Notes under the pieces: model-generated
Databases searched by the model: none
Told to the model about the DNA's origin: nothing
The model's input: only the letters and a program-made list of their open reading frames with translations
Origin: a virus
Lineage: Duplodnaviria > Caudoviricetes
Strand: one strand, 5' to 3'
DNA length: 63,708 bases
Virus record (IMG/VR): IMGVR_UViG_3300042938_000824
Coordinates: 1 to 63,708 of that record
Shown here: positions 2,064-21,641 of the stretch, in pieces
Position numbering within the stretch: the stretch's first letter is position 1
Layout of the letters: each line of letters begins with the position of its first letter
Made by a program: the position numbers and the translations under genes

Positions 2064-2774
2064 ATGGACTTTGATGTCGTTCGCCCCCTCTTCGGAGGCA
2101 AGCTGACCCAGAAACAGGTCGACGGAATAAACCACCTCGTGTCGATGTGGGGTCGCTACGGCGACGGAGACCGGTACAAACTCTCGTACCTGCTGGCGAC
2201 TACGGCGTGGGAGACGGCCTACACCATGCAGCCGATCCACGAGCGCGGGCCCAAGAGCTACTTCAGCAAGTACGAACCCGGCACCTCAATCGGTAAGGCC
2301 TTGGGGAATACAACGGCGGGAGACGGCTACAAGTTCCGAGGCCGTGGTCACGTACAGCTTACCGGTCGCCGGAACTACGCCAAGGCGGGGAAGGCCTTCG
2401 GCATAGACCTCATCAAGGAACCAGACCTCGCCTTGACGCCTGACGTATCCGCCCGCGTCCTGATCACAGGATGCCTCGAGGGCTGGTTCACGGGGCGTAG
2501 TCTGGGCCAGTACATTACTCCAGACCTGATCGACTATAAGAACGCGCGCCGAGTCGTTAATGGTCTGGACAAGGCGGCACAGATTGCCGAGATGGCGAAG
2601 GTATTCGAGAGCGCTCTCGGCGTCCGCATACCGGCCCCGCCTCTCACGCAGCCGCGACCAACGCCCGCCACAATTGACAAGCCGAAGCCTTTACCGCAAG
2701 CCTCATTCTGGGTTAGGTTGCAGGCACTTGCAGGTCTGTTCCTCGCGGCGCTGAAGAGGGCCTTTTTCAAATGA
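2064..2774 (+). CDS. Endolysin, glycoside hydrolase family 19-like
   Basis: YLLAT..WET and GDGYKFRGRGHVQLTGRRNY motifs; GGAGG RBS; Pro-rich linker and hydrophobic/basic C-terminal helix. Confidence 0.88.
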   Translation: MDFDVVRPLFGGKLTQKQVDGINHLVSMWGRYGDGDRYKLSYLLATTAWETAYTMQPIHERGPKSYFSKYEPGTSIGKALGNTTAGDGYKFRGRGHVQLTGRRNYAKAGKAFGIDLIKEPDLALTPDVSARVLITGCLEGWFTGRSLGQYITPDLIDYKNARRVVNGLDKAAQIAEMAKVFESALGVRIPAPPLTQPRPTPATIDKPKPLPQASFWVRLQALAGLFLAALKRAFFK

Positions 2775-3007
2775 TAAAGCCTTGGTACACCAGCCGAACC
2801 ATGTGGCTGAACATTGCATCTATCGTCACAACTCTGGCGACGCTTGGTTTGTCTAACCTGTCGTTGCTTGGTCTTCCAGATTACGCCCTGTTTTGGTGGA
2901 TGCTGGGCCTGACCCTAGTGGTCAACGTCTCGAACATTGTTCTGAGGTTGGGGACCACGGACGCCATCGGGAAGTCTGAAGACGGCTTCACGGGCGAGAA
3001 CACATGA
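2771..3007 (+). CDS. Two-TM membrane protein, holin-like
   Basis: KPWYTSRTMWLN start, two hydrophobic helices, ATGA overlap with endolysin. Confidence 0.65.
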   Translation: MIKPWYTSRTMWLNIASIVTTLATLGLSNLSLLGLPDYALFWWMLGLTLVVNVSNIVLRLGTTDAIGKSEDGFTGENT

Positions 3008-3378
3008 ACATTCTCGGCCTTCTCAATCCGCTAGGCGCGTTGAAGGACGGTCTTGTCTCTGCGCAAAAGCAGTGGCTCGACGCCAAGAACGACGCCTCCC
3101 GGCTGAAGGCCGAGGAGAACATGGCCTACTTCAAGGGCCAGATCGAACTGGCGGTCGCCGCCAGCAGGTATGACAAGTGGTACTCGGTGCGGTCGCTGAT
3201 CGGCTACTGCGTCGTGATCTTGGTCGCGAAGCTCCTCATCTGGGACACGGTCCTTGGGTGGGGTGTAACCCCCAACCCCGGCCAGTTGGTGATGTGGATC
3301 ACGGTTACCGTGATCGGGTTCTACTTCGCGAGCAAGACAGCCATTGACGTCGCTCGCATTATACGAGGCGGGAAATGA
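3004..3378 (+). CDS. Holin-like membrane protein
   Basis: Hydrophobic helices and VIGFYF motif; ATGA-coupled within lysis cassette. Confidence 0.65.
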   Translation: MNILGLLNPLGALKDGLVSAQKQWLDAKNDASRLKAEENMAYFKGQIELAVAASRYDKWYSVRSLIGYCVVILVAKLLIWDTVLGWGVTPNPGQLVMWITVTVIGFYFASKTAIDVARIIRGGK

Positions 3379-3689
3379 ACCTGTTCGGTCACGATATTGC
3401 GTTCTGGTTTGCAGCCTTTGGGTCGGCGGCGCTCAAGATAGTTCTGAGCCCGTGGATGGGCGTATGGCAAGGGGTCATCTCCGTCGGTGCCGCGTTGTTC
3501 TGCGCGATTGTCTTCACCTCGCCCGTGCTGAACTACCTGAACATGGACCCCGAAACGTACAAGGCCGCTCTCGCGGCCTTGATTGCGCTGACGGGTGAGA
3601 GCATCGTCAGGTCGATGCTTCAGCTTGTGACCGAGCCGGGTAAGCTTGCGGACATGATCAAGTCCATTCGCGGCGGTGGCGGGAAATGA
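3375..3689 (+). CDS. Membrane protein, putative holin
   Basis: 2-3 hydrophobic segments; ATGA-coupled. Confidence 0.6.
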   Translation: MNLFGHDIAFWFAAFGSAALKIVLSPWMGVWQGVISVGAALFCAIVFTSPVLNYLNMDPETYKAALAALIALTGESIVRSMLQLVTEPGKLADMIKSIRGGGGK

Positions 3690-3787
3690 AGACGGGCCTC
3701 AGACTGCCATGGTTCTGGGTATTGGTGGCCGCGTGGGCCACCGTCCTCCTGATCGCGTGGGCCACCAACACCGGCCTTATCAGTTGA
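3686..3787 (+). CDS. 33-aa single-TM peptide (not in ORF track)
   Basis: MKTGLRLPWFWVLVAAWATVLLIAWATNTGLIS*; ATGA overlap with the upstream gene. Confidence 0.55.
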   Translation: MKTGLRLPWFWVLVAAWATVLLIAWATNTGLIS

Positions 3788-6700
3788 CCTTGGCCCTCTT
3801 TTCCGCCTCGTCATAGTACGCCGCGACTGCGCGGTTCATCACTTCCGCCATGTCGTCGCGGATGTCGGACACCTTCTTCAGCCTTGCGGTCTGCGTCATG
3901 GTCTTGTTGTCCATCGCAGCGCGCAGCTTCTTCCGCAGATCCTTCAGCTGCCGGTCCGCCCGATCAAACGCGGACCGCACCCTTGAACTTGACGCGATGC
4001 GGGTCTTGCCTGAAGCCCGCAACTCCTTGTCCTCAAGTTCGTTCTCCGTGGTTTTTACCTCGCCAGCGAGGTCGTAGTATATGTCCTGCGCACCCCTCTT
4101 GGTCGAGGTTCCGGTCACGAAACGTTTGATCACCGGGATCTTGCCGAGGTCGACCTCTTCGCCAGCAATCACAGCCAGCGGTGCCTCCGTCAGCATGTAC
4201 TTGGCGTCGAGCAGGAACTTACCGGTGCCCGCAGTGGCGAACTCGAACCAGTACTGCAGGTGCTCAGGCGACCAGTCTAGGCCCCCCTTTCGCATCGCGT
4301 TGCCGCCCGTCAGGTCGTTGAGCTTTTGGGCCGCCCACACGAAGGTTCCATCCGTGCTCCGGTAGAAGCGCTCGCTCATGGGTTTGGTTTCGTCGTAGGT
4401 CGGCGGCACGATATCCATGTCCGCCCAATTCTTGTTGGACGCCAATTCGACAAGGGGGTCCACAAACCACGGCGATATGACCACGGCGGGGTTCGAGCTG
4501 GAACCGATGGGGCTGATCGCGCCTACCATGGCCGTGACCGCCCTGCCCATAGCTCCATCAGCCTTGATCGGCTGCCGGGGATTGGTGAAGCTGTCGATGG
4601 CTCGGTTGATATTGCGACCAAGGTTGTAGATCGCGCCATAGACGCCGATGGCCATCGGTATCTTCAACGGCTGGGTGATGCCGGGGACGCCGAACTTATG
4701 AACAGGCAAGACGATGTTGCGGGCCAGTTCGTCTTCCGACATCTGGTCGTAGTCCTTGATGCCGTTCTCGTCCTCATCATCGCTGACTGCGCGGTTGAGC
4801 GCGTCGAGCAAAACCGCCATGCCAATGACGCCGGTCAGGATACCTAGGCCCGCCTTCGACTTCAAGGCGCTGCCAGCCACGGCCATGCCGTTGGTGACGA
4901 CGCTCGCGAACAGGTAGCCGGTGTCCATGAGCTGCTTGTACTTGCCGCCCTTGTTGAAGTTGATGGTCAGGTTCTTGGCCGCGACACCAGCCTCGGTGAT
5001 TGATGCACCCGCATCACGCATGGCAGAGTACAGGCCCAAACGCATTGTGCCCTCGGCCACGTTGTTGAGGCCGTCCCACTTTGCCAGAGCGTAGTCGACA
5101 GCTTGGCCCGCCTTCGCGACAACGGCCTTGCCACCCTCCAAGGCACCGGCGTCACGGCGCAGCTTGTTGATCGTGGTCGCCAGATCGGTCGGCGCAAGGA
5201 AGGATACGATCCAGCCATTCTGCACCATCTCCTCGTAGTGGCGGGTCATCTTGCCGCTGCCCGGGGGAGCCTTCTGGTTGAGCTGGTACTCGCTGATCGC
5301 TATGGCGGCCTGCGGGATGCTGGCCACCATCTTCGGGATCAGGTTCTTTACGTCGTACTGCGCGGCGTTGATCAGGGCTTCCTGCGCGTCGCGCACGAAG
5401 TTGGTCAGCACGAAGTTCGGGTTACGCGACGTGATCAGCGCCGTGTAGGTCCGCCGCACCCACATCATTATCTGCAGGAGCTTGCCAAACTGCTCGATCA
5501 TCGGCGACCGCAGCGCATTGCTGATGTACATGTCGTCGGTCTGCAAGATGACGTCCTTGCCGTCTATCTTGAACACGAGGAAGCGTGGGTCGTTACGGAA
5601 TGAGGGGTCTACGATTTCTCGGATCATACCATCCGCGCCGTAGGCCAGACGCTTCGGGTACTGCGTCAGGATACTGATGCTGCCCTGCACCCCCGCAGCC
5701 TGCGCCTGCCGAATGGTATCGACCAGCGCCTTACCGACGCGGGCCCTCTCGCCCCTCATGACCGTCACGGCCTGCAAGGACACGAGGTTGGCGACGATGT
5801 CGCCAGCCTTGCTGGTGCGCCCGAACATACGCTTGTCGGGCCTCTTGCCCCACGACGTAAAGCCGCGACCGACGCCATCGGCCCGAGGTGGCTTCGTGAT
5901 GAAGTCGTTGGGGTCGGTGTCTTCGGTATCCCGCAGCGGCACCCAGTGCTGGAAGGGGGACGCGGCCAGAACGTCGGCGGTGATCTGCCCCGTTGCAAGC
6001 CGTGTTTGGTTGATGTCGGCAACGATGTCGTCAGCCATACGGCTGATCGCCATGAGGTCGGTGAAGGTGCCTTTCGCCCTTGCGTCGGCTATGATCTTGG
6101 CCGCCACGGCGTCGGTCATGCCAGAGGGGTCAGGCTTCTTCGAGCCGCGCGCACGCAGGTAATCGTTACGTTCCGGCGCGTGCAGGGCGTACAGGAAGTC
6201 GATCACGTCGTCATACGTAAAGCGCTTGGCCTTGATGCCCGCCTTCATGGCGTCAGTCAGCGGCGTGATGAACTGGCGCTCGCGCTGCTGGACTTGGAAG
6301 GCTGCCGCGCTACCGACCGACTGCTCGACGATGTAGGCGTTGAGGTCGGCAGGGATCGGGAGACCTTTCCTGACAAGCTCGTCGTAGTACTCCTTGATGG
6401 GCAGGAAGTTGTCCTGAAAGTTTATGCGGAGGTCAAAGATGCTGCCAGCGATGGGTATCGCCCGCTTGCTGCGCCCGAAGTTGTGCAGGTTCGTGCTGAA
6501 CCAGCCCTGCACCCTGTCGTAGATATTGCGGTGCACCATGCCGCCGTGGGGCGTAACCCGCGCGCGCGGACGACCCCTGCTGTAGCGGATGTCGGACCCA
6601 GCCGCAGACCAAGAGCCGCGGTCGGCAACGGCTGCCTTTGCCTGAGTTGGCTGGAAGGTGATGTAGGCGTCAGGCCCATCGGGTTCGGTACGGTACACGA

Positions 6701-9700
6701 TGCCGTCGTAGCCAGCCTCCATCACGGCGTCCTGCAAAGCGACGGGCCCATTGACCGTGTTGTCCATCACGCTGCGATAGAAGTCGGCGTCGATGACACC
6801 GAGGTCCAGCAACTGCTTGGCGACAGCGTCAGTTTTGAACGAGCCATCGTCTACGAGGGCCAGCGGGTTCTGGATCGACAGATATGACGGGTACCCCGGC
6901 CCCCGGTCACCTTGCGTGTTCGCCTGATCGACAGAGCCGAAGTGCGACCTGAACTCCGACGCCCTCGTGTCGAAGACACCGAGGTTACTGTCAGGAGTAC
7001 CGAGATCGTACACCCTCTTCGGCGCGCCGCTCTCGTCGACGACAGCGCTCTGCTTGAACCACGAATTGAAGGCGACGCTCGACAGGCCCTGACGCGGACC
7101 ACGCCGTTCGATGTCGAACTCGTACATGCCGAGCATGTCGACGAGGCTGCCGTTGGCGGTGAGCGTGTCGGCGTTCTCGATCTGCCCCTTGCCTGAAGGG
7201 TACAAGACCACGGGCATCGCCGTGGACTTACCAACGAGGGCGCGGGCCATGCCAACGCCATCGCTGTTCATGACCGGTACGGCACCAACCTTGCCGCTCT
7301 CGACAACGAGCGACGGCATGGTGTTGAACTTGAGGCCGTCGTTGGCCGCTGCGTTGTAGAGGGCCTGCTCGCGCACCGGTGCGGGGTCAGCGAGGCGCAG
7401 GAAGTCTTCGGGGTTCATGTAGACCAGCACGGCACCACGGTCGCCGTCACGCGCCATCTGCAACTGCTGGTACGCAACGTCGCCACCGAAGAAGGCGTTG
7501 CCGTCGCGCGTCTCGCTGAAGGCTGGAGCCGACGTATCGGCAGGCGATACCACCGCAGCCGCGGACCGCTTCGGGTCGCCGTAGTATTTGCCGCCGGGCA
7601 CGACGTCGTCGAGCATGGCGTAGAACTCAGGCGAGCCGACGTTGTAGCTGTTGGCCGCGGTAAGCTCCCCCATGTTGCCAGCACGGCCATCCAGCCATGT
7701 CCACTCTGGCATCAGGCCGGTCTTCTGGTCAGCGAAGACGGTATCCTCAACCGATGCGGAACGGTTCTTCTCGCCGTACGGGCCGTAGTTCAGCCAAGAG
7801 TTCTGGCCCCTCGTCTCGGTCGTGATCGCGCCGACAGCCGGTCCTTGGAACAGACGGACGTGGGCCTGCCACGCATTCTCTTCGCCGCGCGCACGGAAAC
7901 CAGCCCCCTCGAGGCCGTGGCCGAAGGCGTCGTGAACGGCGCGGAAGAGGTCGTTGGCCGTCACGTTGCGGAGGGGACCGGTCGGTGACCCCCACGCCCA
8001 CTTGATGTCGGTGCTTTGCAGGAGGGGATTACCGGTGACGTCGACGTCCGTGGCCCCGCTGCCGAAGCCGTCGGAAGTCGGGAACACCGCCATGCGCTTA
8101 TTGGCGCGCAGATCGCGCATGGCGTTCCACGGATTGCCGAAGCCGCCCTGCTGCCCTTCGTACGGATCCCGCCCATCGGGGTCACGGAAGTAGAACTGGT
8201 ACCCAGCCTGCTCGAGCGCGCGGTACTGGGCCACGGTCTGGCGGATTAAGTCTTGGTACGCCGCCACGACCTTTGGGTCTGTGGGGGCGTGCGGCATGAC
8301 ATCATAAGCCGCGGCGATACGCGCCGCGCGCTTGGGGTCTACCTCGACAAATTCGGATTGACGCCGGAGGTCGATGCCGTTGTCCCGAGCGTATTGCTCT
8401 GCGACGGCGAGGAGGCGCGCGTCCGGGCCCGATGCTCCTGCAACATTTGGCGCGCCTTCAAGAGGCGTACTGCTTGGGGTCGGTATCCGTCCTCCTCCGT
8501 CTCGGGAGGGGAGCCGCGACTGTTCCGCTGGTCCATACTTTATTCCTCGGCTGTAGAGATAGAAGTCACCCCGCCCCGGTACGCTTTGCCCGGAGGTAGA
8601 TCCATCAGCTCCTCTGGCATATCCACGATCTGCTGCCAGTTGTCCGGTACCGGACCGCTGAACGCGAGCGCGAGCCAGTTCTCCCTCGTAAGAGGTCGGC
8701 CTAGCCGCTGCAGCGCTACCACTATCGGGTCCGAGCCAAGTCGGGTCATTGATGCCTCCTGCAAGAGCCTCGATCTGCGTCCGGGCCGCGCCAACATCCA
8801 ACGCACCGGTCTTCACCGCGTTCCAGACGTTGAGCACCTGTTGTACTTTACCGGCGTTCCGCTTGTCAACGGCGGGAAATAAACCACGTATGGCCTCCCA
8901 CGTAATTGACTGCAATTCGCGCGGCAGAATGCCGAGCTGCTCGGCAGCGCGACGGTAAGCCTCGGCGTAGATACCGTAGGTACCTTGCGCGCCGTTGTCC
9001 GCGATATTTCTGGCCGCGATCCAACCAAGGGGCTGCTTCGATACGCCGGGGCTGGAGCCGAAGTTGTGGTGGACTTCAGGTGAGCTGCCCGACAACGGGC
9101 GTATCAGTGCCGCGGCCACCGCGTGGGTGTCGATTGTTACGTCACCCCACGGCGCTTTCGGCGCGAGGATGTTGTTATAGAAGTTGCGGACCTTGTGCTT
9201 CTCGCCCATCCGCTCGCTGACATTGTCGCGGGTCGGGTTGCCAATGGCACTGATCGCCTTGGCAATTTCGACGTTCGAGCCCCACGCCACGTTGCCTTCA
9301 GGCTGACCGATGAACTCGCCTTCGGGGCTGACCGTGCGGAACCCGCGCGGGTTGTAGGTCTCGTCGTAGATGCGGACCCACATGGCCTTGGTCAGGTCAT
9401 CCGGCATGTCGGTGAGCGTGCCGTTAAGCACGGTCTGCACATCATTGGCGTAGTCGGGTTTGGCGTAGATGCGCTGAGCGGTCGCGGCCATCTCCGGCGT
9501 AGGAGTGAACGCCCGATTGTTGCCGGTGGTGAACGATGTATAAATGTCGAGTACGCGCTCGGCGAGACTGACGTTCTGATACCAGTCTTTTTGCGGCGAC
9601 AATGACGCCAGCACCCCCGCGACAACGTAGTCGGGGAGATTGTACTGACGCGCCCAGCGTTCGGTGATGGTACGAGCGCCGTCGTACCAAAGCTTCGAGC

Positions 9701-12700
9701 GCTGTCGAATTTCCCCCGGCACACGGTTGTGCAGGTAGACAAGATTTCCGACAACGAAGTCGATGAAGTCTTCGGCGATCTGGTCCGGGATTGTCGCCGT
9801 GGTGCGGAAGCCGGGGTACGACTTCACAATTTGCATGTTAGCCGCAAATTTGGCGGGGTCCGCCTTCATCGCCGCGAGGTCGATGATCAGGTTGTCGGTC
9901 AACGGATTTTGCCGCGCCAGACCTCGTATGGTCGTGGGCTGGCGCGTTGAGATACGGTCGGGCGTGTCGCCGTTGGGCATCATGCGCGTCTGAAGAACGC
10001 CGCGGCTGTACCGCGTCTCGTCGCCGATGCCCGACAGGTCGATGATGTCTTCGCGCGGCTGAACCGGTTCGACCAGCGCCTCGGGCGGCAGCAGTGCCGC
10101 CTTCTGTTCAGCGAACTCGCGCATGTTCGGCGGCACGTAGCCAAGGGCGTCCGGTGCCGCGATGCTGCCATCGGTCAGACGCATCTTCGGGCCAGCATTC
10201 TGCCACGCCGACTGGGCCAGCATCTCGGTGGCGAGGGCGCGTGTGCCCTGATCCGAGTACATGCCCTTGAGCGTGTGGTACGCGCGGTAGTCGCCCAGCT
10301 GGCTGGGGACAGCACCCACCGGCGCGTAGCCATACACCTCGGCCACGACGCGCAGCAGATCACCGTTCGAGAGCGAGGAGCCATCCGGCGTGGTGATGCC
10401 CGACGGTTCCTGCATGGGGTGGTTACGGCGTGAGGGGTGGGGCGGGAACAGCTCGTTGCTGAGCCGCATCTTCACCTGACCATTGTCGGCGATGTCGTCG
10501 ATCAGTTCGCGCTGGTTGAGATACGGCTGGCCATTCTCCCGCCACGGCACGACCTCGACGTTGAGCGTGTTGAAGATGGCCTTGGTTTCGGCGACCAGCG
10601 ACGAGTACGCCTTGCCGACCGCGATGTTGCTGGGCTCGTGCTTGGCCTTGTCGTAGGCGTCGGCTAGCTTCATCAGGAAGCCTGCGTCTGGCGTGTCCCT
10701 GTTGGGCGTCGGCGACAGGTTGAGGTCCGTCTTGGCCTTCTCAAGCAGATCCTCGACGCGGTCGAACGAGCCGCGGGGCCCGACCATGAAGTCGTCACTC
10801 GGCGTCGTGCCAAGCACCGAACGGGGCCCGACGCGACCGACGCGGTCTTCGGCGGCCTGCTCGCGGGCCTGAAGGAACTCGCGCTGCGCCGCGAGCGTTT
10901 CTTCGGGCGTCGTTGCCACAGCCATGTCGGCTCTGGCCTTCTCCATCATTTCGACGGCGGCACCGCGGTACGACAGCGGTGCCTTGATGCGCGACCGCGC
11001 CAGCGTGCCGGTCTCGATGCTGCGGAAGATGTCGTCCGGCACCGAGCCAACCAGACGCTTGAACCACTCGACGATCTTCTCAAGAGCGGTGCGCGGCACG
11101 CCGGTCACGGCCCGCCTGTTGGCGGCCCACATGCGGAACGCTTCGGCGATAGCCTCTTCGACAACGACGTCGGGGCGGTCCCGTAGGTCGGGGTTGGTGT
11201 CGAACGCCGTCTCGAGGTACGTCTTGCCCGTCTTCGGGTGCGTTGCCTTCTCGACGTAGTTGGACAGAATTGACCACGCCCGTGTGCGGGGGGCCAGAAC
11301 ACCAGCCTCGCGGAGGGCGTGGACGGTTTCGTGGTCCATCACGCCAGCCAGCGCTTCGACGACCTCGTCGGTCGACATGTTGGGGTCGAGGTTCTCGACC
11401 GACAATTCGATGAGCTGATTGAGGTACGAACCCTCGATGCCACCTTCGCCTTCCTTGTCGGTGATCGCCAAGACGATCTGGACGCGGTTGCCGATCAGGG
11501 GCAGGGCGCGGCGGTTGGCCTGCTCGTTAAGCTTGTCGACGATCTCCTGCAGTCTGCCCTCTACCACCTTGGGGGTCGGGACGATCTGCTGGCGCGACCG
11601 CGCGATGACCGACGGTCGCGGCGCGCGCCCCGACGCGCGTGCTGCGGCCACTTCGTCTGCTATCTCTTGAAAGGCTTCTGGCCCCGTTCGAACGCGTGGC
11701 GGTGCGGCTCCTCGCGCCGTAAATCTTTCGGCTTCCGCCCGTGCGGTGTCTTCGGCGACGTGCGTACTGACGACAGCGCGGTCAACCAGATTGCCTTCGG
11801 CGTCGTAGCGGTTCTCGTAGACGGCGTAGCCCGGTCGGCCATCCATCGCCTTGCCTTCGGCGTCGACACCGCCGCGCGCAACTTCCACCCTGCTGGCCGG
11901 GAGTTGTTCAGCCTTCTCGCGCTCGCGGATCCCGCGCACGGCGTCCTTAGCCGCGACCTGATCCTCGAAGACACCGACGACCTTGCCGTCCTTCTTGACG
12001 GCAATGGTATCTAACGACACAGGGGCAACAGTGAAGGTCTTCAGCGGCGACTGGGTAGACGGGGCAGCGGGTCGTTCGTACGGCTTGAAGGTTCCGGGAC
12101 GGGTACCCGGCACCAAGTCGCCGCGCTGGACCATCTCGTCGCGGATCAGCTTGGCCGCGGCGGGTGTTGCGCCGGTCGCGTCCTGCAGACCCTTGAGAGT
12201 GAAGCGGCCAGCCGAGCGAACGGAGGCAACGCCTGCGCCATACTGCTCTTCGGTAAAGGGGCCAGTGCGCGCGACGGCGCTTTCCTGCGCCGGGCGCGTC
12301 GAAGACGCGAGGCCCTGCTCGCCGGTCAGCGGCTTGCGGGCGAGGATCAGTGCGTCGATGAAGCTTTGGTCGACCTTGGCATTCTTCATGTCGGCAACCG
12401 ACACGGGTGCATCCGGCTGACGCCCGGTACGCATCCGCCACAGGTTTACCTTGCCCGCGACGTCGGGGCCAACCTCGGACATGCTGAACGAGCCGATGGG
12501 CGTGGTGACTTCGCGGGCAGTGCCCAGCGTGGCCCGGGTGCGGTCGGCGGCCTTCTGCGCGATCTGCTCTTCGGTCGGCGAAAGCTTGATCGTCTGCTGC
12601 CGCGCGACGATGGGCGACACGATGTCTTCTGGTGCGGATGGGGGAGGCAGCGCCAACCGCTTCTCGCGCTCAATAGCCTTCGGCTGCGCCGCTACGTTGC

Positions 12701-13925
12701 CGAGCGTTTCCGCGATGCCGGGGTCGGCACCGGTGGGCACACCGAAGTTGGACCCAACGACCCTCTCGGTCGTCGGCGCGGCCTTGTCGTCGGGAACAAA
12801 GGGGCCCTGCGTAATCCGGTCGACGGCACTGACACCGCTCTGCGTGATACCGCCGCCAAAGGCCCCCGATAGGATCGCGGTCGTCAGCCGGTTCGAGGCC
12901 TCGGACCAAGTCATCTCTGGCTCAATAAAACCTTTGTCGAGCCCGATCTGGAGTAGAGCGGTAACGCCTTCCGACAGCCCTTCGGCTGCGACCTGCTCGC
13001 CAAGCTTGCGGAAGAACCGGCCCGGCCCCTGCTGCAGCAGCAGTCCGATGGGTAGGGCGGACGGGATTGCCTCGGACGCGCCAGACAGAACCCCGTACAG
13101 CGCGGCGTCGTTCGGGGAAAGACCTTCATCGCGCCCACGACCATAGCTCTGGCCTTGTGTCATGAGCTGGGCCTGCGCCAACACGGGAGCAGGGGTCTTC
13201 AGGAGAAGCGACGCAGCTATGGCAGGGGCCAGCTGGGCCGTCGAGCTTACAGCCGATACGCCAGCGCCAATAATGGAGCCGGGGACGACATTGACAGGAA
13301 TGCGTTCCGCCTCAATCTTCTTGCGTTCTTTCGCGCCTTCTTTTTCGAGCGCCTGAACACGCTCGTACGATGTACCCAACGGCCTGAAGTTTGGATCCTG
13401 CCCCTTCAACGCGGCTTCAAGCTCCGCCTTGCCCTGCGGCGTCTTGATGAAGGCCTCGACCTGAGCAGTCTGCGCCGGGTCGAGAATGTCGCGACCAGTC
13501 CCAGCAGGTTGTATGCCGAGCCTGCCCGAAGCCCAGCGGATCAGGTTCTGCTCGTCGAAGGAGGCTGTTCGGGTGGCGTTTAGCTTGTATTCGGGGCCGA
13601 TCTGCGCAAGCAGCTTGTCGGGGTCTCCAGCGGAGCCCTCGAAAAGCTGCTGCTTTATGCCGGAAAAAGCCTGCGGAAAATCGGACGCAAAAGCGTTAAT
13701 CGCCGACTTACCTGCAGCAACAAACGGGTTGTCGGCTTTACTCTTCCGCTCAAGGATATTCTGAATTTCGTTGGGGTACTTGGAGCTGATCAGTTCGGCG
13801 ATACGCTGCGGGGTTGTACCCGGCTTAAAAGCAACAAGCTGCCCATCGGGCATCTCTACAACGATGTCGTTTTCGGGCTGCTGTGGAGCCGTCGGAGGCC
13901 CGTAAGGTGACGCGCCAAACGACAT
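3780..13925 (-). CDS. Giant 3381-aa polyvalent virion/ejection protein (wHTH, zincin HExxH, HhH-like glycosylase, duplicated HDxxGH domain, ParB-like, ART-like, LPD38-like C-terminus)
   Basis: Last gene of the late operon after the ejection proteins; HETVH 11319-11333, KVRNF..VTIDTH ~9120-9195, HDAFGH ~7917-7934, WFKQSAVVDESG..GYDGIVY..DIRYSR ~6575-7070. Confidence 0.85.
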   Translation of the reverse strand: MSFGASPYGPPTAPQQPENDIVVEMPDGQLVAFKPGTTPQRIAELISSKYPNEIQNILERKSKADNPFVAAGKSAINAFASDFPQAFSGIKQQLFEGSAGDPDKLLAQIGPEYKLNATRTASFDEQNLIRWASGRLGIQPAGTGRDILDPAQTAQVEAFIKTPQGKAELEAALKGQDPNFRPLGTSYERVQALEKEGAKERKKIEAERIPVNVVPGSIIGAGVSAVSSTAQLAPAIAASLLLKTPAPVLAQAQLMTQGQSYGRGRDEGLSPNDAALYGVLSGASEAIPSALPIGLLLQQGPGRFFRKLGEQVAAEGLSEGVTALLQIGLDKGFIEPEMTWSEASNRLTTAILSGAFGGGITQSGVSAVDRITQGPFVPDDKAAPTTERVVGSNFGVPTGADPGIAETLGNVAAQPKAIEREKRLALPPPSAPEDIVSPIVARQQTIKLSPTEEQIAQKAADRTRATLGTAREVTTPIGSFSMSEVGPDVAGKVNLWRMRTGRQPDAPVSVADMKNAKVDQSFIDALILARKPLTGEQGLASSTRPAQESAVARTGPFTEEQYGAGVASVRSAGRFTLKGLQDATGATPAAAKLIRDEMVQRGDLVPGTRPGTFKPYERPAAPSTQSPLKTFTVAPVSLDTIAVKKDGKVVGVFEDQVAAKDAVRGIREREKAEQLPASRVEVARGGVDAEGKAMDGRPGYAVYENRYDAEGNLVDRAVVSTHVAEDTARAEAERFTARGAAPPRVRTGPEAFQEIADEVAAARASGRAPRPSVIARSRQQIVPTPKVVEGRLQEIVDKLNEQANRRALPLIGNRVQIVLAITDKEGEGGIEGSYLNQLIELSVENLDPNMSTDEVVEALAGVMDHETVHALREAGVLAPRTRAWSILSNYVEKATHPKTGKTYLETAFDTNPDLRDRPDVVVEEAIAEAFRMWAANRRAVTGVPRTALEKIVEWFKRLVGSVPDDIFRSIETGTLARSRIKAPLSYRGAAVEMMEKARADMAVATTPEETLAAQREFLQAREQAAEDRVGRVGPRSVLGTTPSDDFMVGPRGSFDRVEDLLEKAKTDLNLSPTPNRDTPDAGFLMKLADAYDKAKHEPSNIAVGKAYSSLVAETKAIFNTLNVEVVPWRENGQPYLNQRELIDDIADNGQVKMRLSNELFPPHPSRRNHPMQEPSGITTPDGSSLSNGDLLRVVAEVYGYAPVGAVPSQLGDYRAYHTLKGMYSDQGTRALATEMLAQSAWQNAGPKMRLTDGSIAAPDALGYVPPNMREFAEQKAALLPPEALVEPVQPREDIIDLSGIGDETRYSRGVLQTRMMPNGDTPDRISTRQPTTIRGLARQNPLTDNLIIDLAAMKADPAKFAANMQIVKSYPGFRTTATIPDQIAEDFIDFVVGNLVYLHNRVPGEIRQRSKLWYDGARTITERWARQYNLPDYVVAGVLASLSPQKDWYQNVSLAERVLDIYTSFTTGNNRAFTPTPEMAATAQRIYAKPDYANDVQTVLNGTLTDMPDDLTKAMWVRIYDETYNPRGFRTVSPEGEFIGQPEGNVAWGSNVEIAKAISAIGNPTRDNVSERMGEKHKVRNFYNNILAPKAPWGDVTIDTHAVAAALIRPLSGSSPEVHHNFGSSPGVSKQPLGWIAARNIADNGAQGTYGIYAEAYRRAAEQLGILPRELQSITWEAIRGLFPAVDKRNAGKVQQVLNVWNAVKTGALDVGAARTQIEALAGGINDPTWLGPDSGSAAAARPTSYEGELARARVQRSGTGQLAADRGYARGADGSTSGQSVPGRGDFYLYSRGIKYGPAEQSRLPSRDGGGRIPTPSSTPLEGAPNVAGASGPDARLLAVAEQYARDNGIDLRRQSEFVEVDPKRAARIAAAYDVMPHAPTDPKVVAAYQDLIRQTVAQYRALEQAGYQFYFRDPDGRDPYEGQQGGFGNPWNAMRDLRANKRMAVFPTSDGFGSGATDVDVTGNPLLQSTDIKWAWGSPTGPLRNVTANDLFRAVHDAFGHGLEGAGFRARGEENAWQAHVRLFQGPAVGAITTETRGQNSWLNYGPYGEKNRSASVEDTVFADQKTGLMPEWTWLDGRAGNMGELTAANSYNVGSPEFYAMLDDVVPGGKYYGDPKRSAAAVVSPADTSAPAFSETRDGNAFFGGDVAYQQLQMARDGDRGAVLVYMNPEDFLRLADPAPVREQALYNAAANDGLKFNTMPSLVVESGKVGAVPVMNSDGVGMARALVGKSTAMPVVLYPSGKGQIENADTLTANGSLVDMLGMYEFDIERRGPRQGLSSVAFNSWFKQSAVVDESGAPKRVYDLGTPDSNLGVFDTRASEFRSHFGSVDQANTQGDRGPGYPSYLSIQNPLALVDDGSFKTDAVAKQLLDLGVIDADFYRSVMDNTVNGPVALQDAVMEAGYDGIVYRTEPDGPDAYITFQPTQAKAAVADRGSWSAAGSDIRYSRGRPRARVTPHGGMVHRNIYDRVQGWFSTNLHNFGRSKRAIPIAGSIFDLRINFQDNFLPIKEYYDELVRKGLPIPADLNAYIVEQSVGSAAAFQVQQRERQFITPLTDAMKAGIKAKRFTYDDVIDFLYALHAPERNDYLRARGSKKPDPSGMTDAVAAKIIADARAKGTFTDLMAISRMADDIVADINQTRLATGQITADVLAASPFQHWVPLRDTEDTDPNDFITKPPRADGVGRGFTSWGKRPDKRMFGRTSKAGDIVANLVSLQAVTVMRGERARVGKALVDTIRQAQAAGVQGSISILTQYPKRLAYGADGMIREIVDPSFRNDPRFLVFKIDGKDVILQTDDMYISNALRSPMIEQFGKLLQIMMWVRRTYTALITSRNPNFVLTNFVRDAQEALINAAQYDVKNLIPKMVASIPQAAIAISEYQLNQKAPPGSGKMTRHYEEMVQNGWIVSFLAPTDLATTINKLRRDAGALEGGKAVVAKAGQAVDYALAKWDGLNNVAEGTMRLGLYSAMRDAGASITEAGVAAKNLTINFNKGGKYKQLMDTGYLFASVVTNGMAVAGSALKSKAGLGILTGVIGMAVLLDALNRAVSDDEDENGIKDYDQMSEDELARNIVLPVHKFGVPGITQPLKIPMAIGVYGAIYNLGRNINRAIDSFTNPRQPIKADGAMGRAVTAMVGAISPIGSSSNPAVVISPWFVDPLVELASNKNWADMDIVPPTYDETKPMSERFYRSTDGTFVWAAQKLNDLTGGNAMRKGGLDWSPEHLQYWFEFATAGTGKFLLDAKYMLTEAPLAVIAGEEVDLGKIPVIKRFVTGTSTKRGAQDIYYDLAGEVKTTENELEDKELRASGKTRIASSSRVRSAFDRADRQLKDLRKKLRAAMDNKTMTQTARLKKVSDIRDDMAEVMNRAVAAYYDEAEKRAKVN
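8339..8536 (-). CDS. Second nested 65-aa gene in the +1 frame of the giant gene
   Basis: GAGGAaTAAagtATG: starts 3 nt after the stop of the first nested ORF; acidic patch then helix AVRLLKARQMLQEHRAR. Confidence 0.5.
   Translation of the reverse strand: MDQRNSRGSPPETEEDGYRPQAVRLLKARQMLQEHRARTRASSPSQSNTLGTTASTSGVNPNLSR
8540..8749 (-). CDS. Nested 69-aa gene in the +1 frame of the giant gene (candidate immunity protein)
   Basis: AGGAGG-catca-ATG; MTRLGSDPIVVALQRLGRPLTRENWLALAF..; hand-counted GC3 48/69 in this frame vs 33/69 in the host frame. Confidence 0.7.
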   Translation of the reverse strand: MTRLGSDPIVVALQRLGRPLTRENWLALAFSGPVPDNWQQIVDMPEELMDLPPGKAYRGGVTSISTAEE

Positions 13926-15113: not shown

Positions 15114-16031
15114 TTACAGGAAGAAGCCCGCGCCAGCCGTCACCGCCCCGATGAGCTGCGACAGGAAGTCGGGTGCTGGCTGGGTAGTGGTCTGGGTCGT
15201 AGTCGGCTGGATAGGCTGGCCGTAGAGCAGCGACGAGTACTTCGAGAGTTGCTCGTAGGGGTAATCGCGCTGCCTCTGGAAGTCCTGATACGCCAGATCA
15301 AGGCCAGCCTGCTCGCGCTGCTGCTCCTTCGCGCCGATGCCAGACAGCGCCTCGGCTCCAGAGAAGCCGTACTGCTGCAACATCTTCTGCAGGTCAGCGC
15401 CGGTCTTCGCAGCGTCAAGAGACAGGCCAGCGCCCATGCGGCGGCTTTCTTCGTTGGCCATCTGGGCCTGAAGGTTACGCGCCTGATCCGAGGTGAACAA
15501 ACCGCTCGCCGTATCGAAGCCGCGCTGCAGGCCTTCGGCCTCGATGCCCTGCATCTGCTGGTTCAGGTCGCGCTGGGCGAGGCTGTCCTGAACGAAGCGG
15601 CGGTTGCCGCCAAAGGCACCAGCTTGGATGGCGGACGCATCGCGGCCAGCCTGCTGTTCCTGATACGCCTGCTGAGCACGCTGCTTCTGCACATCCAGCA
15701 CGTTCTGGATGTAGGGGTTCATGTACCCCTGAATGTTGGCCTGCGTAAAATCCTGCGTCGAGATCTGACCCGGCTGGAAGCCGGAAACGCCCTGCGCCGT
15801 CTGCATGGCGTTAGTGATGCCGGTCGGATCCTGACCGGCGGTGTCGCGCATCTGGGTGAATGCGGCCTGCGTGTCGGGGGAGAACTGGGCCAGACGCTGA
15901 CCGCCATACTGCTGGTACGGCATGGTCGATACCGTCTCGGCACGGGGCAGGAACCTGTCGACGTACGGCTTGATGTACCCCGGCAACTCGCTTGTCGTAG
16001 TAGTCGTGGTGCTGTCGTCGCCCTTAGACAT
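15114..16031 (-). CDS. DNA pilot/ejection protein
   Basis: Thr-rich N-terminus, YMNPY, AGAFGG, Gln-rich coiled coil, hydrophobic C-terminus. Confidence 0.7.
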   Translation of the reverse strand: MSKGDDSTTTTTTSELPGYIKPYVDRFLPRAETVSTMPYQQYGGQRLAQFSPDTQAAFTQMRDTAGQDPTGITNAMQTAQGVSGFQPGQISTQDFTQANIQGYMNPYIQNVLDVQKQRAQQAYQEQQAGRDASAIQAGAFGGNRRFVQDSLAQRDLNQQMQGIEAEGLQRGFDTASGLFTSDQARNLQAQMANEESRRMGAGLSLDAAKTGADLQKMLQQYGFSGAEALSGIGAKEQQREQAGLDLAYQDFQRQRDYPYEQLSKYSSLLYGQPIQPTTTQTTTQPAPDFLSQLIGAVTAGAGFFL

Positions 16032-19395: not shown

Positions 19396-19707
19396 CTAGA
19401 CCGTGACGGTCAATGTACCCACGGACCCCGTCGCCGACAGGCTGGTTGGTCCGATGTATGCGTAGTTGGCGAGAACGACCTTGAGAACGTCGGCGTCGCG
19501 ATAGACTTCACCAACAATAAGGCCAACAGGGTTATCGGGCAAGCTCGGCAGATACAGCCTGCCGCCGCGCAGCACAGCCGGGAAATCTGCAAGGCGTGTG
19601 TAGTTTTCGATCCAGCGGTTCAGCTGGAAGGCCCAGTTCTGGTTGTACTCGAACGGGGCTCGAGGTGGTGCTGGTGGGAGGGCAGCCGTCGATTTGGGCT
19701 GGCTCAT
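19396..19707 (-). CDS. Small tail-associated protein (103 aa, start MSQPKS)
   Basis: ATGA overlap with the upstream nozzle gene; ends SATGSVGTLTVTV. Confidence 0.7.
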   Translation of the reverse strand: MSQPKSTAALPPAPPRAPFEYNQNWAFQLNRWIENYTRLADFPAVLRGGRLYLPSLPDNPVGLIVGEVYRDADVLKVVLANYAYIGPTSLSATGSVGTLTVTV

Positions 19708-21641
19708 CGCTGGCCATCCGGGCTGGCGTACAGGCGAGGCACGCCCAGCTGCCACAGCGTTCCGTCAGTGTCCGTGGCCACGGTGAAGTCAATCGAACGG
19801 GCGCGGAAGCGGCGGTCGAGCTTGTCCGTGTACTCCTCAACGGGCACCAGCAACGTGCCAGCCGCGGTGCGCGTGATATTCGGATCCGGCCCCGTCACGA
19901 AGCCTGAACCCGGGTAATCGCGCTTGTTGAACCTGAAGGTAATGCGAGGCGTCTGCGTGTTCGAGCCGTAGAAATTGACGTCTGGGATGATACGGCTGAT
20001 CAGCATAAAATCCATGCCGCTGCCGATTTCAAACACCGACGACGTCAGGTAGGCGTCTAGCTTCGCGCCGGGTGCGACCGAGTTATCGCGGGTGCCCAAG
20101 TCCTGCATGTAGATGTAGCCATCAGGCGACGCCGCGAGGGGTACGTCCTCGTGCCATGCATCGAGCCAAGTGGTGCGGCCAACGTCGTTGTAGCTGCCGT
20201 AGTACCAGATCAGGTTCGAGGGATCTTCGTAGTTGCAGACCACGTAGAAGTTGCACTCCTCCGATCCGTTGACGGGGATGTGCCAGATCACTTCCTTGTA
20301 CTGGCGGTCGACACCGGCGTAGATCTTGTCGGTCTGGTTGAAGTTCAGGATCGAGAAGATGTACTGGCGCACCGAGCACGGCATGTCGCGCACGACGCCG
20401 TCGTACATTTGGAAGACGCCATTCGCCATCCAGAAAGTCATTGCACCTGTGGAGATGACGGCGTTGGGCCCGATCAGGTGGATGTTCGTGCCGATGCGGA
20501 CTTCGCCGAAGGTGTAGGGGGGACCAACGTACTTGAAGCTGTGCAGGCTGACGTCGGTGAAGATCAACACTTCGGTGGTCGTCTCAATGGCCTTCAGGAT
20601 GCTGGAGCCGACGCCGAGGCGAAGTTCGCCCGCGCTGTTGGTGGTGTCGGGGAACCACACGGTCTTGTCTTCGGTGGTCGACCACCTGATCAGGACGGGA
20701 TCCTGCGTATCGCTGTCGAGGGGGTTGGCACCAAAGCAGATGACGTGTCGGCTGTTGTCGCTGACCAAGACCTGAGATGCGACGACGGGCACGTATTGCT
20801 GGATGGCCGACGCGGCGGTCGAGCGCAGCGTCACGGCACGGCCACTGACCGTCGAGGTGTCCTTGAAGTACACGCCAGCATTGCGGGCGTTGAATAGGAT
20901 GTCTTCGCCGAAGGCGTCCTCAGACCACAGGCGAATGCCTTCGGTCGTCAGAGGATCGCCGGTGCCCTGACCCCAACCAACCGAACCGTTCCAAGTGCCG
21001 GTGCCCCAACCATCGCCAGTCTGCGCCGTCGCGAAGCCGACGTTGATCTGGTACTCGGCGGTAACCGTTCCGCCGCCGGTGGCAACTGTAGATGTGACTG
21101 GCGACGAGGTGGTCAGCGTGAACGTGTAGCTGTCGGCGTTGATGACTTCGACGACCTGAAACTCACCCTCGAAGTCGGCGAGGGCGATGCCGCCGAGGGT
21201 GCCAACGATGCTGGCGAGATCGAAGGTCACGAAGTCGCCGACGTCGCAACCATGAGCCGTGTCGGCGACCGTGATCAGGTGGCTGGTGACGCTCGTCGCT
21301 GCTACGGTGGTAAAGGGGTCAGTGAGGCTTGCGGTATCCCGTAGGGGCGTGATGTCGACGAGCTGGCTGCCCTGAATGAGGTAGTACTTGAGGTTGGTGC
21401 CAGCAGCGTAGAGGTTCAGGCCGTTCAGTTTGGTGAAGGGGAAGAGGCTGCGGAAGGTTCCTTCGGCGGGCGAGGACGTAAACTTCGACCAGCCGCCCAT
21501 GCTCTCAGCGGTGCCCGAGCGCCAACGGATCAAATTGCAGTCATACCAACCGCCGGTGTTGCCGTAGTTGGTCGTCTCCCGATTTACACCGGGGCGGAAC
21601 TGCAGCTTGATGGGGTCTGGTGCGGGTCCGCCTTCGGCCAT
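19704..21641 (-). CDS. Tail nozzle / packaged-DNA stabilisation protein
   Basis: PGVNRETT, IRWST, GPPYTFG motifs; 645 aa, beta-rich; position. Confidence 0.75.
   Translation of the reverse strand: MAEGGPAPDPIKLQFRPGVNRETTNYGNTGGWYDCNLIRWRSGTAESMGGWSKFTSSPAEGTFRSLFPFTKLNGLNLYAAGTNLKYYLIQGSQLVDITPLRDTASLTDPFTTVAATSVTSHLITVADTAHGCDVGDFVTFDLASIVGTLGGIALADFEGEFQVVEVINADSYTFTLTTSSPVTSTVATGGGTVTAEYQINVGFATAQTGDGWGTGTWNGSVGWGQGTGDPLTTEGIRLWSEDAFGEDILFNARNAGVYFKDTSTVSGRAVTLRSTAASAIQQYVPVVASQVLVSDNSRHVICFGANPLDSDTQDPVLIRWSTTEDKTVWFPDTTNSAGELRLGVGSSILKAIETTTEVLIFTDVSLHSFKYVGPPYTFGEVRIGTNIHLIGPNAVISTGAMTFWMANGVFQMYDGVVRDMPCSVRQYIFSILNFNQTDKIYAGVDRQYKEVIWHIPVNGSEECNFYVVCNYEDPSNLIWYYGSYNDVGRTTWLDAWHEDVPLAASPDGYIYMQDLGTRDNSVAPGAKLDAYLTSSVFEIGSGMDFMLISRIIPDVNFYGSNTQTPRITFRFNKRDYPGSGFVTGPDPNITRTAAGTLLVPVEEYTDKLDRRFRARSIDFTVATDTDGTLWQLGVPRLYASPDGQR

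Follow-up and report, generated by a model that had tools for sequence, protein, structure and literature searches.

A small gene nested in the +1 frame of a giant phage gene, and a predicted binding partner for its DUF7178 module

Can the linker of a giant, multi-domain phage protein be a gene in another frame, and what would such a gene do for the protein in which it lies? The question is raised by IMGVR_UViG_3300042938_000824, a 63.7-kb viral record of IMG/VR (Caudoviricetes) that is complete, with direct terminal repeats, and that was analyzed over its whole length of 63,708 nucleotides (hereafter the window). Inside an uninterrupted open reading frame (ORF) of 3381 codons on its minus strand, directly past a module of the Pfam family DUF7178, a perfect Shine-Dalgarno (SD) sequence precedes a second ORF of 69 codons in the +1 frame (Table 1). 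The original prediction took this ORF for the immunity gene of a DNA-glycosylase-like toxin domain, overprinted on a linker and exchanged with the domain as one cassette. Based on homologous loci, substitution patterns and structural modelling, we propose the following. The 69-codon ORF is almost certainly a real gene. It would be translated independently of the giant gene, from an SD sequence and an ATG written into the last conserved codons of the module (A-G-G-I-N-D), with a 45-residue core overprinted on DNA that the host frame reads as a disordered linker. Its product would be the cognate binding partner of the module, the two forming one cassette that occurs in three layouts. As the most likely mechanism we infer an immunity-like guard: late in infection, the small protein, helical and mostly acidic, would be produced alongside the giant one, form a one-to-one complex with the module and hold the latter inert, or in its correct fold, inside the producing cell up to packaging and ejection of the giant protein. 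That the small protein binds the DUF7178 module is probable on the strength of the model. The whole statement, i.e. embedded gene, cognate partner and immunity-like guard, falls just short of an even balance, and inhibition of the module as the mode of action is a tentative reading that we regard as somewhat doubtful.

The start signals described in the original prediction are borne out by the sequence. On the minus strand AGGAGG (8760-8755) is followed by CATCA and then by ATG (8749-8747), and the nested ORF is offset from the host ORF by 5176 nucleotides, which is 1 modulo 3 and defines the +1 frame. With both strands counted, the window contains four instances of AGGAGG followed by ATG after a spacer of 4-9 nucleotides, and one of the four falls within the giant gene. 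The ATG sits in the host codons I-N-D of AGGINDPTW (amino acids 1722-1730), the conserved C-terminal end of the module; the claim that the ORF starts where a helix-hairpin-helix (HhH)-like domain ends thus holds for the position, whereas the HhH-like label is not confirmed, Pfam assigning the module to DUF7178. Over the nested ORF, third-position G+C content (GC3) amounts to 48/70 for the nested frame against 33/70 for the host frame, so that the earlier hand counts were right; gene-wide, host-frame GC3 is 0.785. In a sliding window, coding-like composition passes from the host to the +1 frame from about 8825 to 8320, and the host frame translates here as the predicted R/G/S/A-rich text, its G+C content by codon position being 0.69/0.67/0.47 in the linker versus 0.64/0.47/0.79 gene-wide. 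With 23 alternative-frame ORFs of at least 60 amino acids on the same strand of the giant gene, length alone is unremarkable, and own GC3 exceeds host GC3 in only two of the 23, 8806..8540 (+0.19) and 8536..8339 (+0.20). What lifts the nested ORF beyond chance is its conservation in other genomes.

This conservation was followed in three sets of loci, cited below by L numbers. The viral set comprises 80 IMG/VR loci encoding relatives of host residues 1376-1975. A tblastn search with the nested peptide detected a related peptide just past the upstream module in most of them, and an iterated hidden Markov model (HMM) recovered the small protein's conserved core from all of them except L009 (79/80); in these 79 loci and the window (80/80), the core lies in the +1 frame directly past the end of DUF7178. 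The unchanged HMM was then applied to 80 metagenome loci, 68 of which reach the end of the module, and recovered the core in 58 of the 68, with 10 lacking it. The +1 frame accounts for 54 of these cores, 30 of them embedded and 24 not, including one that lies 1.2 kb downstream. Of the other four, two follow the host stop in the +2 frame, one lies 1.3 kb downstream in frame 0 and one is encoded on the opposite strand. Bacterial genome assemblies contributed 40 loci, of which 32 extend to the module end; the core was found in 18 of these and missing from 14, and here 15 cores are in the +1 frame (11 embedded), two in the +2 frame and one on the opposite strand. Homologues therefore lie beside the module, both nested and free-standing, in all three sets, as the original prediction expected.

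Beyond these loci, a profile search of 1.84 billion representative proteins returned 2013 clusters (counted at 50% identity) at E<=0.001, 494 of them at E<=1e-10, and the best 150 of the 2013 matches are proteins of 54-190 amino acids. Matches in the larger protein collection are labelled only 'hypothetical protein' and carry no Pfam domain, and the ESM Atlas clusters retrieved for the small peptide are all unnamed. For 59 members of the family, no PHROGs family was assigned and Pfam gave just chance-level rows (E>=0.01); scans of NCBIfam and PADLOC returned no family, nor did the single 69-residue peptide against Pfam and PHROGs. The best tblastn match of the peptide among GenBank phages had E = 4, blastn of the nested region gave just two short matches, and the model of the small protein had no Foldseek match in the PDB at E<=0.001. 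Three relatives called as proteins of 69-73 residues are 67-77% identical to the window peptide. They share 37-41 of 51 core residues with it versus 9-10 of 18 in the tail.

The core is described by a 47-position profile (about 45 amino acids) with the consensus D-P-x-x-x-x-L-M-x-x-x-x-x-P-x-T-R-E-x-Y-L-x-L-A-Y-x-G-x-x-P ... A-E-x-E-x-x-L-P, in which P19, T21, E39 and P45 are near-invariant. AlphaFold2, run with 59 sequences, places helices at residues 8-16, 22-29 and 46-49 (predicted local distance difference test, pLDDT, 71) and leaves the tail disordered, residues 61-66 falling below a pLDDT of 50. Most members end 2-3 residues past the core, and the window copy ends 21 residues past it. 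Net charge is negative in 42 of 59 members, with a median of -4. Two database proteins, P0003 (189 amino acids) and P0011 (149 amino acids), contain two tandem copies of the core each, and in a third, the 190-residue fragment P0116, the core continues in frame from the C-terminal end of DUF7178, either as a natural fusion or through an assembly frameshift.

The small gene is arranged with the module in several ways. Among 61 distinct viral sequences, 37 are embedded, i.e. the host ORF passes the stop of the small ORF, by about 25 codons in some and by hundreds in others including the window, and 24 are overlapped, with the DUF7178 ORF stopping 1-40 nucleotides into the core, which puts the start of the small gene 10-25 codons ahead of this stop. 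Separated or out-of-frame copies complete the range: those in the +2 frame past the host stop (L142, L152, L175 and L189), those more than 1 kb downstream (L144 and L147) and those on the opposite strand (L160 and L180). The host module always ends in A-G-G-I-x-x-P-[TS]-W, and other lineages have their ATGs about 12 or 19 codons further upstream, likewise made by host Asp/Glu codons. A start codon lies 3-29 codons ahead of the core in 80/80 cases, most with an SD core of at least 4 nucleotides; in L004, L012, L051, L063 and L068 a stop codon immediately precedes the ATG. The small ORF is intact in every embedded locus (37/37 viral, 30/30 metagenome and 11/11 genome). In a quick tree of the module, in which root and direction are unsettled, five changes of layout are required; the overlapped form falls mostly into a single clade, and branches of more than one change per site part the embedded lineages. 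The premise of the original prediction, that a toxin domain in mid-polyprotein cannot be followed by a conventional gene, is an evolutionary conjecture that this tree does not decide. At least ten unrelated downstream sequences follow the module and small gene, which shows that the two travel together and agrees with the predicted exchangeable cassette.

Two loci outside the viral set link the arrangement to named organisms. The isolate genome of Jannaschia seohaensis DSM 25227 (L165) carries an embedded copy at 3753-3908 (small gene E 2.7e-21) next to a module that is 56% identical over the whole query, and the host ORF continues for 317 nucleotides past the stop of the small gene. The locus is a probable prophage of a cultured alphaproteobacterium and, as such, a candidate experimental system. 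Rhodobacteraceae phage LS06-2018-MD07 (L163, OP947163.1) has a weak +1 homologue (E 2.3e-5) at 3298-3540, just past the DUF7178 part of a coding sequence (CDS) of about 9.3 kb that is annotated 'methyltransferase' and spans the record origin. No CDS is annotated at this position, so that in the one GenBank record examined the nested gene was missed, as predicted for standard gene callers.

If the nested ORF is translated into a functional protein, substitutions should spare its frame. In 32 embedded pairs that are 70-99.5% identical over the core, non-synonymous differences per site (pN) stay below synonymous ones (pS) in the small frame in 32/32, and the host frame shows pN>pS in 31/32. When ten phylogenetically separate pairs are pooled, seven of them of the deeply embedded kind, the small frame shows 99.7 synonymous against 91.3 non-synonymous changes (pN/pS 0.29) and the host frame 27.8 against 154.2 (pN/pS 2.07). 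Each of the six changes between L016 and L018 is synonymous for the small protein and non-synonymous for the host protein. Conservation hence follows the small and not the host frame, the outcome on which the original prediction had staked its frame-specific check. The host frame is nevertheless held open: it has no stop over the small gene in 37/37 embedded loci, compared with an average of 3.3 stops in the third frame, and host-frame stops average 3.75 in the 24 overlapped loci. From the zero host-frame stops in embedded loci and the low pN/pS of the small frame we conclude that both frames are kept.

Over the overlap, the host-frame sequence is not conserved in its own right; the one motif that recurs there, S-Y-x-G-E-L (SYEGEL), arises as the shadow of PLTRENW, which the small frame encodes. 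Past the small gene the situation differs in six loci (L013, L014, L016, L018, L024 and L034), in which the DUF7178 ORF passes the small gene by about 25 codons; read in the host frame, these final codons encode the conserved motif N-I-[DE]-R-A-[LM]-x-L-T-S-x-Y. Read-through here therefore reaches a conserved C-terminal peptide. In the window, the host frame reads Y-L-Y-S-R-G at 8545-8565 on the minus strand, exactly over the non-conserved tail and the stop of the nested gene, and [YF]-S-[RK] motifs stand in the host frame past the small gene in L006 (RLYSAARR), L023 (PKYSRRS) and L060 (TKYSKRS). Motifs of the Y-L-Y-S-R-G type may be processing or junction motifs.

The module itself matches Pfam PF23802 (DUF7178) at E 3.4e-27, as do all 53 aligned homologues, among which 47 columns are invariant. 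The Pfam model has 193 positions, and the module conserved here extends over about 420 residues; the small neighbour that constantly accompanies it is itself absent from Pfam, PHROGs, NCBIfam and PADLOC. AlphaFold2 predicts a mainly helical domain with high confidence (pLDDT 93.5; predicted template modelling score 0.92), the nearest ESM Atlas clusters are viral DUF7178 proteins only, and in the literature searched the name 'DUF7178' appears in no paper. The original assignment as DNA-glycosylase-like could not be confirmed. The profile of HhH-GPD (PF00730) has no match in the window at E<=10, with 14/14 control genomes positive, and none among the 53 module sequences at E<=1; when the module alignment was compared by hhalign with 13 HhH-GPD domains from five bacterial genomes, the probability was 0.3% (E 0.2) over 21 columns that lie outside the motif; a PDB sequence profile search returned no hits at E<=10, and Foldseek of the module model against the PDB no match below E 0.5. 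By eye, the succession of a helix, a short loop, a second helix bearing K274 and R276, a Pro/Gly-rich loop and D295-T-H297 at the start of the next helix may recall the HhH-GPD signature, an unconfirmed lead.

A physical association of the two proteins is predicted by multimer modelling, which places the small protein on the DUF7178 module. The interface score ipSAE is 0.86 in three of three runs versus 0.00 for the best of three controls, with a pLDDT of 80 for the partner, 95-107 contacts and at least 86% of contacts common to the runs. When the tool was calibrated, 58 of 80 solved complexes attained the ipSAE mark, as did 2 of 110 mismatched pairs; these counts are only a rough guide here, since the complex was modelled from our own module and peptide alignments. 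On the peptide side all contacts fall in residues 3-46, the conserved core. On the module side (numbering of 8721-10013, minus strand) they include the conserved P140, Q141, K252, G270 and V314 as well as positions 318-323 and 325-326. H316 is kept in 96% of partner-bearing versus 12% of partner-less modules, and the consensus residues of the loop positions 321, 322, 323 and 326 occur in 23-56% of partner-bearing modules and in none of the partner-less ones. This pattern is a hint of co-variation at the interface, seen in few, related lineages.

Several observations weigh against a guard that inhibits its module. The score of the complex is the model's own confidence, obtained with our own alignments. 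The invariant K274, R276, D295 and H297 lie outside the contact list and most interface positions are variable (mean consensus frequency 0.52), which leaves occlusion of an active site unsupported. The partner is absent in 1/80 viral, 10/68 metagenome and 14/32 genome loci, and CRP-738 and zth2-2 are phages whose module likewise has no small gene beside it; the invariant, catalytic-like residues persist in these partner-less copies. Among near-full modules 10 of 143 lack the partner (8 after dereplication), and these 8 keep K274, R276, D295 and H297 in 100%; the partner is hence not indispensable, which fits poorly with an obligatory antidote. Toxin status of the DUF7178 module is itself an assumption. 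As for the gene, the HMM was trained on the viral set, where its E-values are circular, the metagenome and genome sets being out of sample. The window has no close DNA relative (best 57-64% protein identity, and none above 59% in a metagenome scan for a closer one), so that selection is deduced from other lineages and not from its own. RNA evidence consists of two 151-nucleotide contigs, at 8592-8741 and 8974-9124 (0 and 1 differences, depth 4), from a single metatranscriptome run that contains 23% of the sampled words. As DNA can be present in such a library, the two contigs support neither transcription nor translation. A promoter and terminator scan of 8200-9400 returned no sites, which is uninformative either way.

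The same observations lend weight to a different role of the complex. As a chaperone, adaptor or obligate subunit, the small protein would bind the module without inhibiting it, aid its folding, head packaging or choice of substrate, and might enter the next host with it. We consider this nearly as likely as the guard. It would agree with a large interface on a mostly variable surface away from the invariant residues, with partner-less copies that keep all these residues and would need no antidote, and with the existence of tandem double copies. The gene order in Roseobacter phage CRP-738 is in line with it as well: its DUF7178 protein gp40 (L162, 1173-3895; 835 amino acids) is encoded between the portal gene with a 71-codon ORF (gp41) and the coat gene, and the interval from portal to coat gene is the usual place of head-cargo proteins. 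On the other side, the small protein matches no chaperone or adaptor family in Pfam, PHROGs, NCBIfam or PADLOC and gave nothing in Foldseek, and loss of the partner in many lineages is at odds with an obligate subunit.

Two further explanations dispense with an independent, living gene, and both are very improbable. Programmed +1 frameshifting, with a slip near ...PTW, would make the peptide an alternative C-terminus of the module; the constant +1 frame of the 80 adjacent viral cases and the in-frame junction in P0116 are what it would produce. However, a separate start codon is present at each locus, preceded in most cases by an SD sequence, and the stop directly before the ATG in L004, L012 and L051 leaves 3-4 codons for the slip. 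No slippery sequence is common to the loci, the window lacking the CCC CCA present in others, some copies are in the +2 frame, far downstream or on the opposite strand, and the top 150 library matches are small stand-alone proteins. The lack of a fused form among proteins of 210-2000 amino acids points the same way as weak evidence. We give as little credence to a decaying relic, i.e. a free-standing gene that was overrun when DUF7178 became fused to the next gene and whose nested copy is dead. The long, poorly conserved tail of the window copy and the missing close relative for a selection test would suit such a history, but the ORF is intact in all embedded loci, embedded pairs show a pN/pS of 0.29 across lineages that long branches separate, the three closest relatives retain most core residues, and the window has a perfect SD sequence at 5 nucleotides. 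Lastly, a chance ORF behind a chance SD sequence in a G+C-rich gene, its frame bias owed to an Ala/Arg/Gly-rich linker, might be suggested by the 23 alternative-frame ORFs and by a second A/R-rich stretch with similar periodicity (amino acids 701-790), yet is already contradicted by homologues in three independent collections, the 494 strong library clusters and the frame-specific selection.

The gene that hosts these sequences encodes a 'polyvalent protein' sensu Iyer et al. 2017, in that it combines several polyvalent-associated domains. In Pfam, LPD38 matches at amino acids 3057-3265 (E 2.3e-30), DUF7178 at E 1.5e-24 with its best stretch at 1406-1464, and ART-PolyVal at 2297-2437 (2.4e-06; 28.8 bits, under the 31.2-bit cut-off). 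The PHROGs matches are families of giant phage proteins. The gene forms the end of a minus-strand block with ejection and structural genes (Table 1), neighbours that would fit packaging of the giant protein into the virion and delivery to the host.

Table 1. Coordinates of the features discussed, given as positions in the window
Feature	Position	Strand	Basis or remark
Giant polyvalent-protein ORF, host frame	3780..13925	-	3381 aa, uninterrupted; ORF list and translation
DUF7178 module, aa 1305-1735	8721..10013	-	conserved over ~1312-1733 (tblastn); ends AGGINDPTW
Shine-Dalgarno AGGAGG of the nested gene	8755..8760	-	within host codons A-G-G
Nested small-protein gene	8540..8749	-	+1 frame, 69 aa and TAA (8542-8540)
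Conserved core, residues 5-48: GSDPIVVALQRLGRPLTRENWLALAFSGPVPDNWQQIVDMPEEL	8606..8737	-	HMM domain coordinates
Weakly conserved C-terminal tail, residues 49-69	8540..8605	-	comparison with relatives
Host-frame linker, aa ~1731-1819, R/G/S/A-rich	8470..8735	-	dual-coded over 8540-8735
PHROG 'DNA ejection protein'	15114..16031	-	minus-strand block of the giant ORF
PHROG 'virion structural protein'	19704..21641	-	minus-strand block of the giant ORF
Holin and endolysin	2064..3689	opposite to giant ORF	

Further stretches of the giant gene show +1-like composition. A second +1 ORF of 65 codons (8339-8536, minus strand) opens with an ATG 3 nucleotides past the TAA of the first, with GAGGA ahead of it, and has an own GC3 of 0.78 versus 0.58 in the host frame. 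Its first half resembles the +1 stretch past the small gene in L003 (E 1.8e-12), L009 and L005, and in L001, L002, L005 and L008 the small protein itself extends C-terminally through the equivalent stretch. The match continues into the shadow of a conserved downstream host domain and supports no conclusion. At about 11560-11825 on the minus strand (host amino acids ~701-790) lies a second region of +1-like G+C periodicity that is A/R-rich in the host frame; the +1 ORF found there, 12004..11660 (114 amino acids, TTG start), exceeds the host's GC3 by just 0.08.

With 2013 clusters and no entry in Pfam, PHROGs, NCBIfam or PADLOC, the small proteins form a widespread family new to phage biology. 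Inter-domain 'linkers' of polyvalent proteins can be true dual-coding DNA, and gene callers and domain surveys therefore undercount the content of such loci. DUF7178 gains a predicted physical partner, which makes its function open to direct testing. Should the partner inhibit the module, this would explain how an injected effector is synthesized safely in the producing cell, and how effector and antidote are exchanged between phages as one cassette. With embedded, overlapped and separated forms in one family, the locus further offers a natural system for the origin and persistence of overprinted genes. A broader idea, which we regard as unlikely, is that polyvalent virion proteins carry a general, unannotated layer of embedded +1 'guard' genes, one per dangerous effector module. 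If so, effector and guard would be inherited, shuffled and expressed as one piece of DNA, polyprotein linkers would be read-through of guard genes, the guard would be left behind or released on ejection so that the effector is armed only in the next host, and the second +1 ORF (8536..8339) would be a further member.

The arrangement can be compared with three known systems. In toxin-immunity and type II toxin-antitoxin pairs, a small partner gene follows immediately 3' of an enzyme-like toxin and moves with it as a unit; polymorphic toxin-immunity cassettes were reportedly treated by Zhang et al. in 2012. The present pair resembles them in the small partner gene immediately 3' of an enzyme-like module and in the varying neighbours. 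Unlike these systems, it matches no immunity or antitoxin family in Pfam, PHROGs, NCBIfam or PADLOC, or in the PDB by Foldseek, its partner is missing from many homologues with intact conserved residues, and the partner gene is overprinted on the module-bearing ORF instead of following its stop.

A second comparison is with the polyvalent proteins described by Iyer, Burroughs, Anand, de Souza and Aravind (2017, PMC5512222). The likeness lies in the giant multi-domain build, here with LPD38 and a sub-threshold ART-PolyVal, in the position beside ejection and structural genes and in the shuffling of domains between relatives. Neither 'overlapping' nor 'glycosylase' appears in that article, its single mention of a 'reading frame' concerns small neighbouring ORFs, and 'immunity' is used for other systems only; by those terms, embedded partner genes in a polyvalent ORF are not described there. 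The literature searched on polyvalent proteins, immunity and phage overlapping genes (including PMC9503650) likewise brought up no description of genes embedded in polyvalent ORFs.

The closest known architecture is the lambda Rz/Rz1 spanin pair (Kongari et al. 2018, PMC6139136; see also PMC5295617). In the former survey, 182 of 528 spanin systems are embedded, 228 overlapped and 118 separated, and 196 o-spanins are listed as missed, callers usually overlooking the embedded gene. Both pairs place the partner gene entirely inside a larger gene, in the +1 frame and behind a separate SD sequence and start, and both occur in embedded, overlapped and separated layouts. The overlap region of the larger protein is rich in disorder-promoting residues in spanins and is a linker here, and the Rz/Rz1 products bind each other, as the present pair is predicted to do by the model. 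Unlike spanins, to which it has no sequence relation (no PHROG or Pfam family in 59 members), the small protein described here is encoded in a 10-kb multi-domain virion gene and not in a lysis gene, outside the lysis cassette, and the overlap falls on an inter-domain linker in mid-gene. Neither a lipoprotein signal nor a membrane segment was noticed in the small protein, no search having been aimed at them. Finally, whereas no spanin family in that survey mixed the embedded with other layouts, the single family identified here shows all three.

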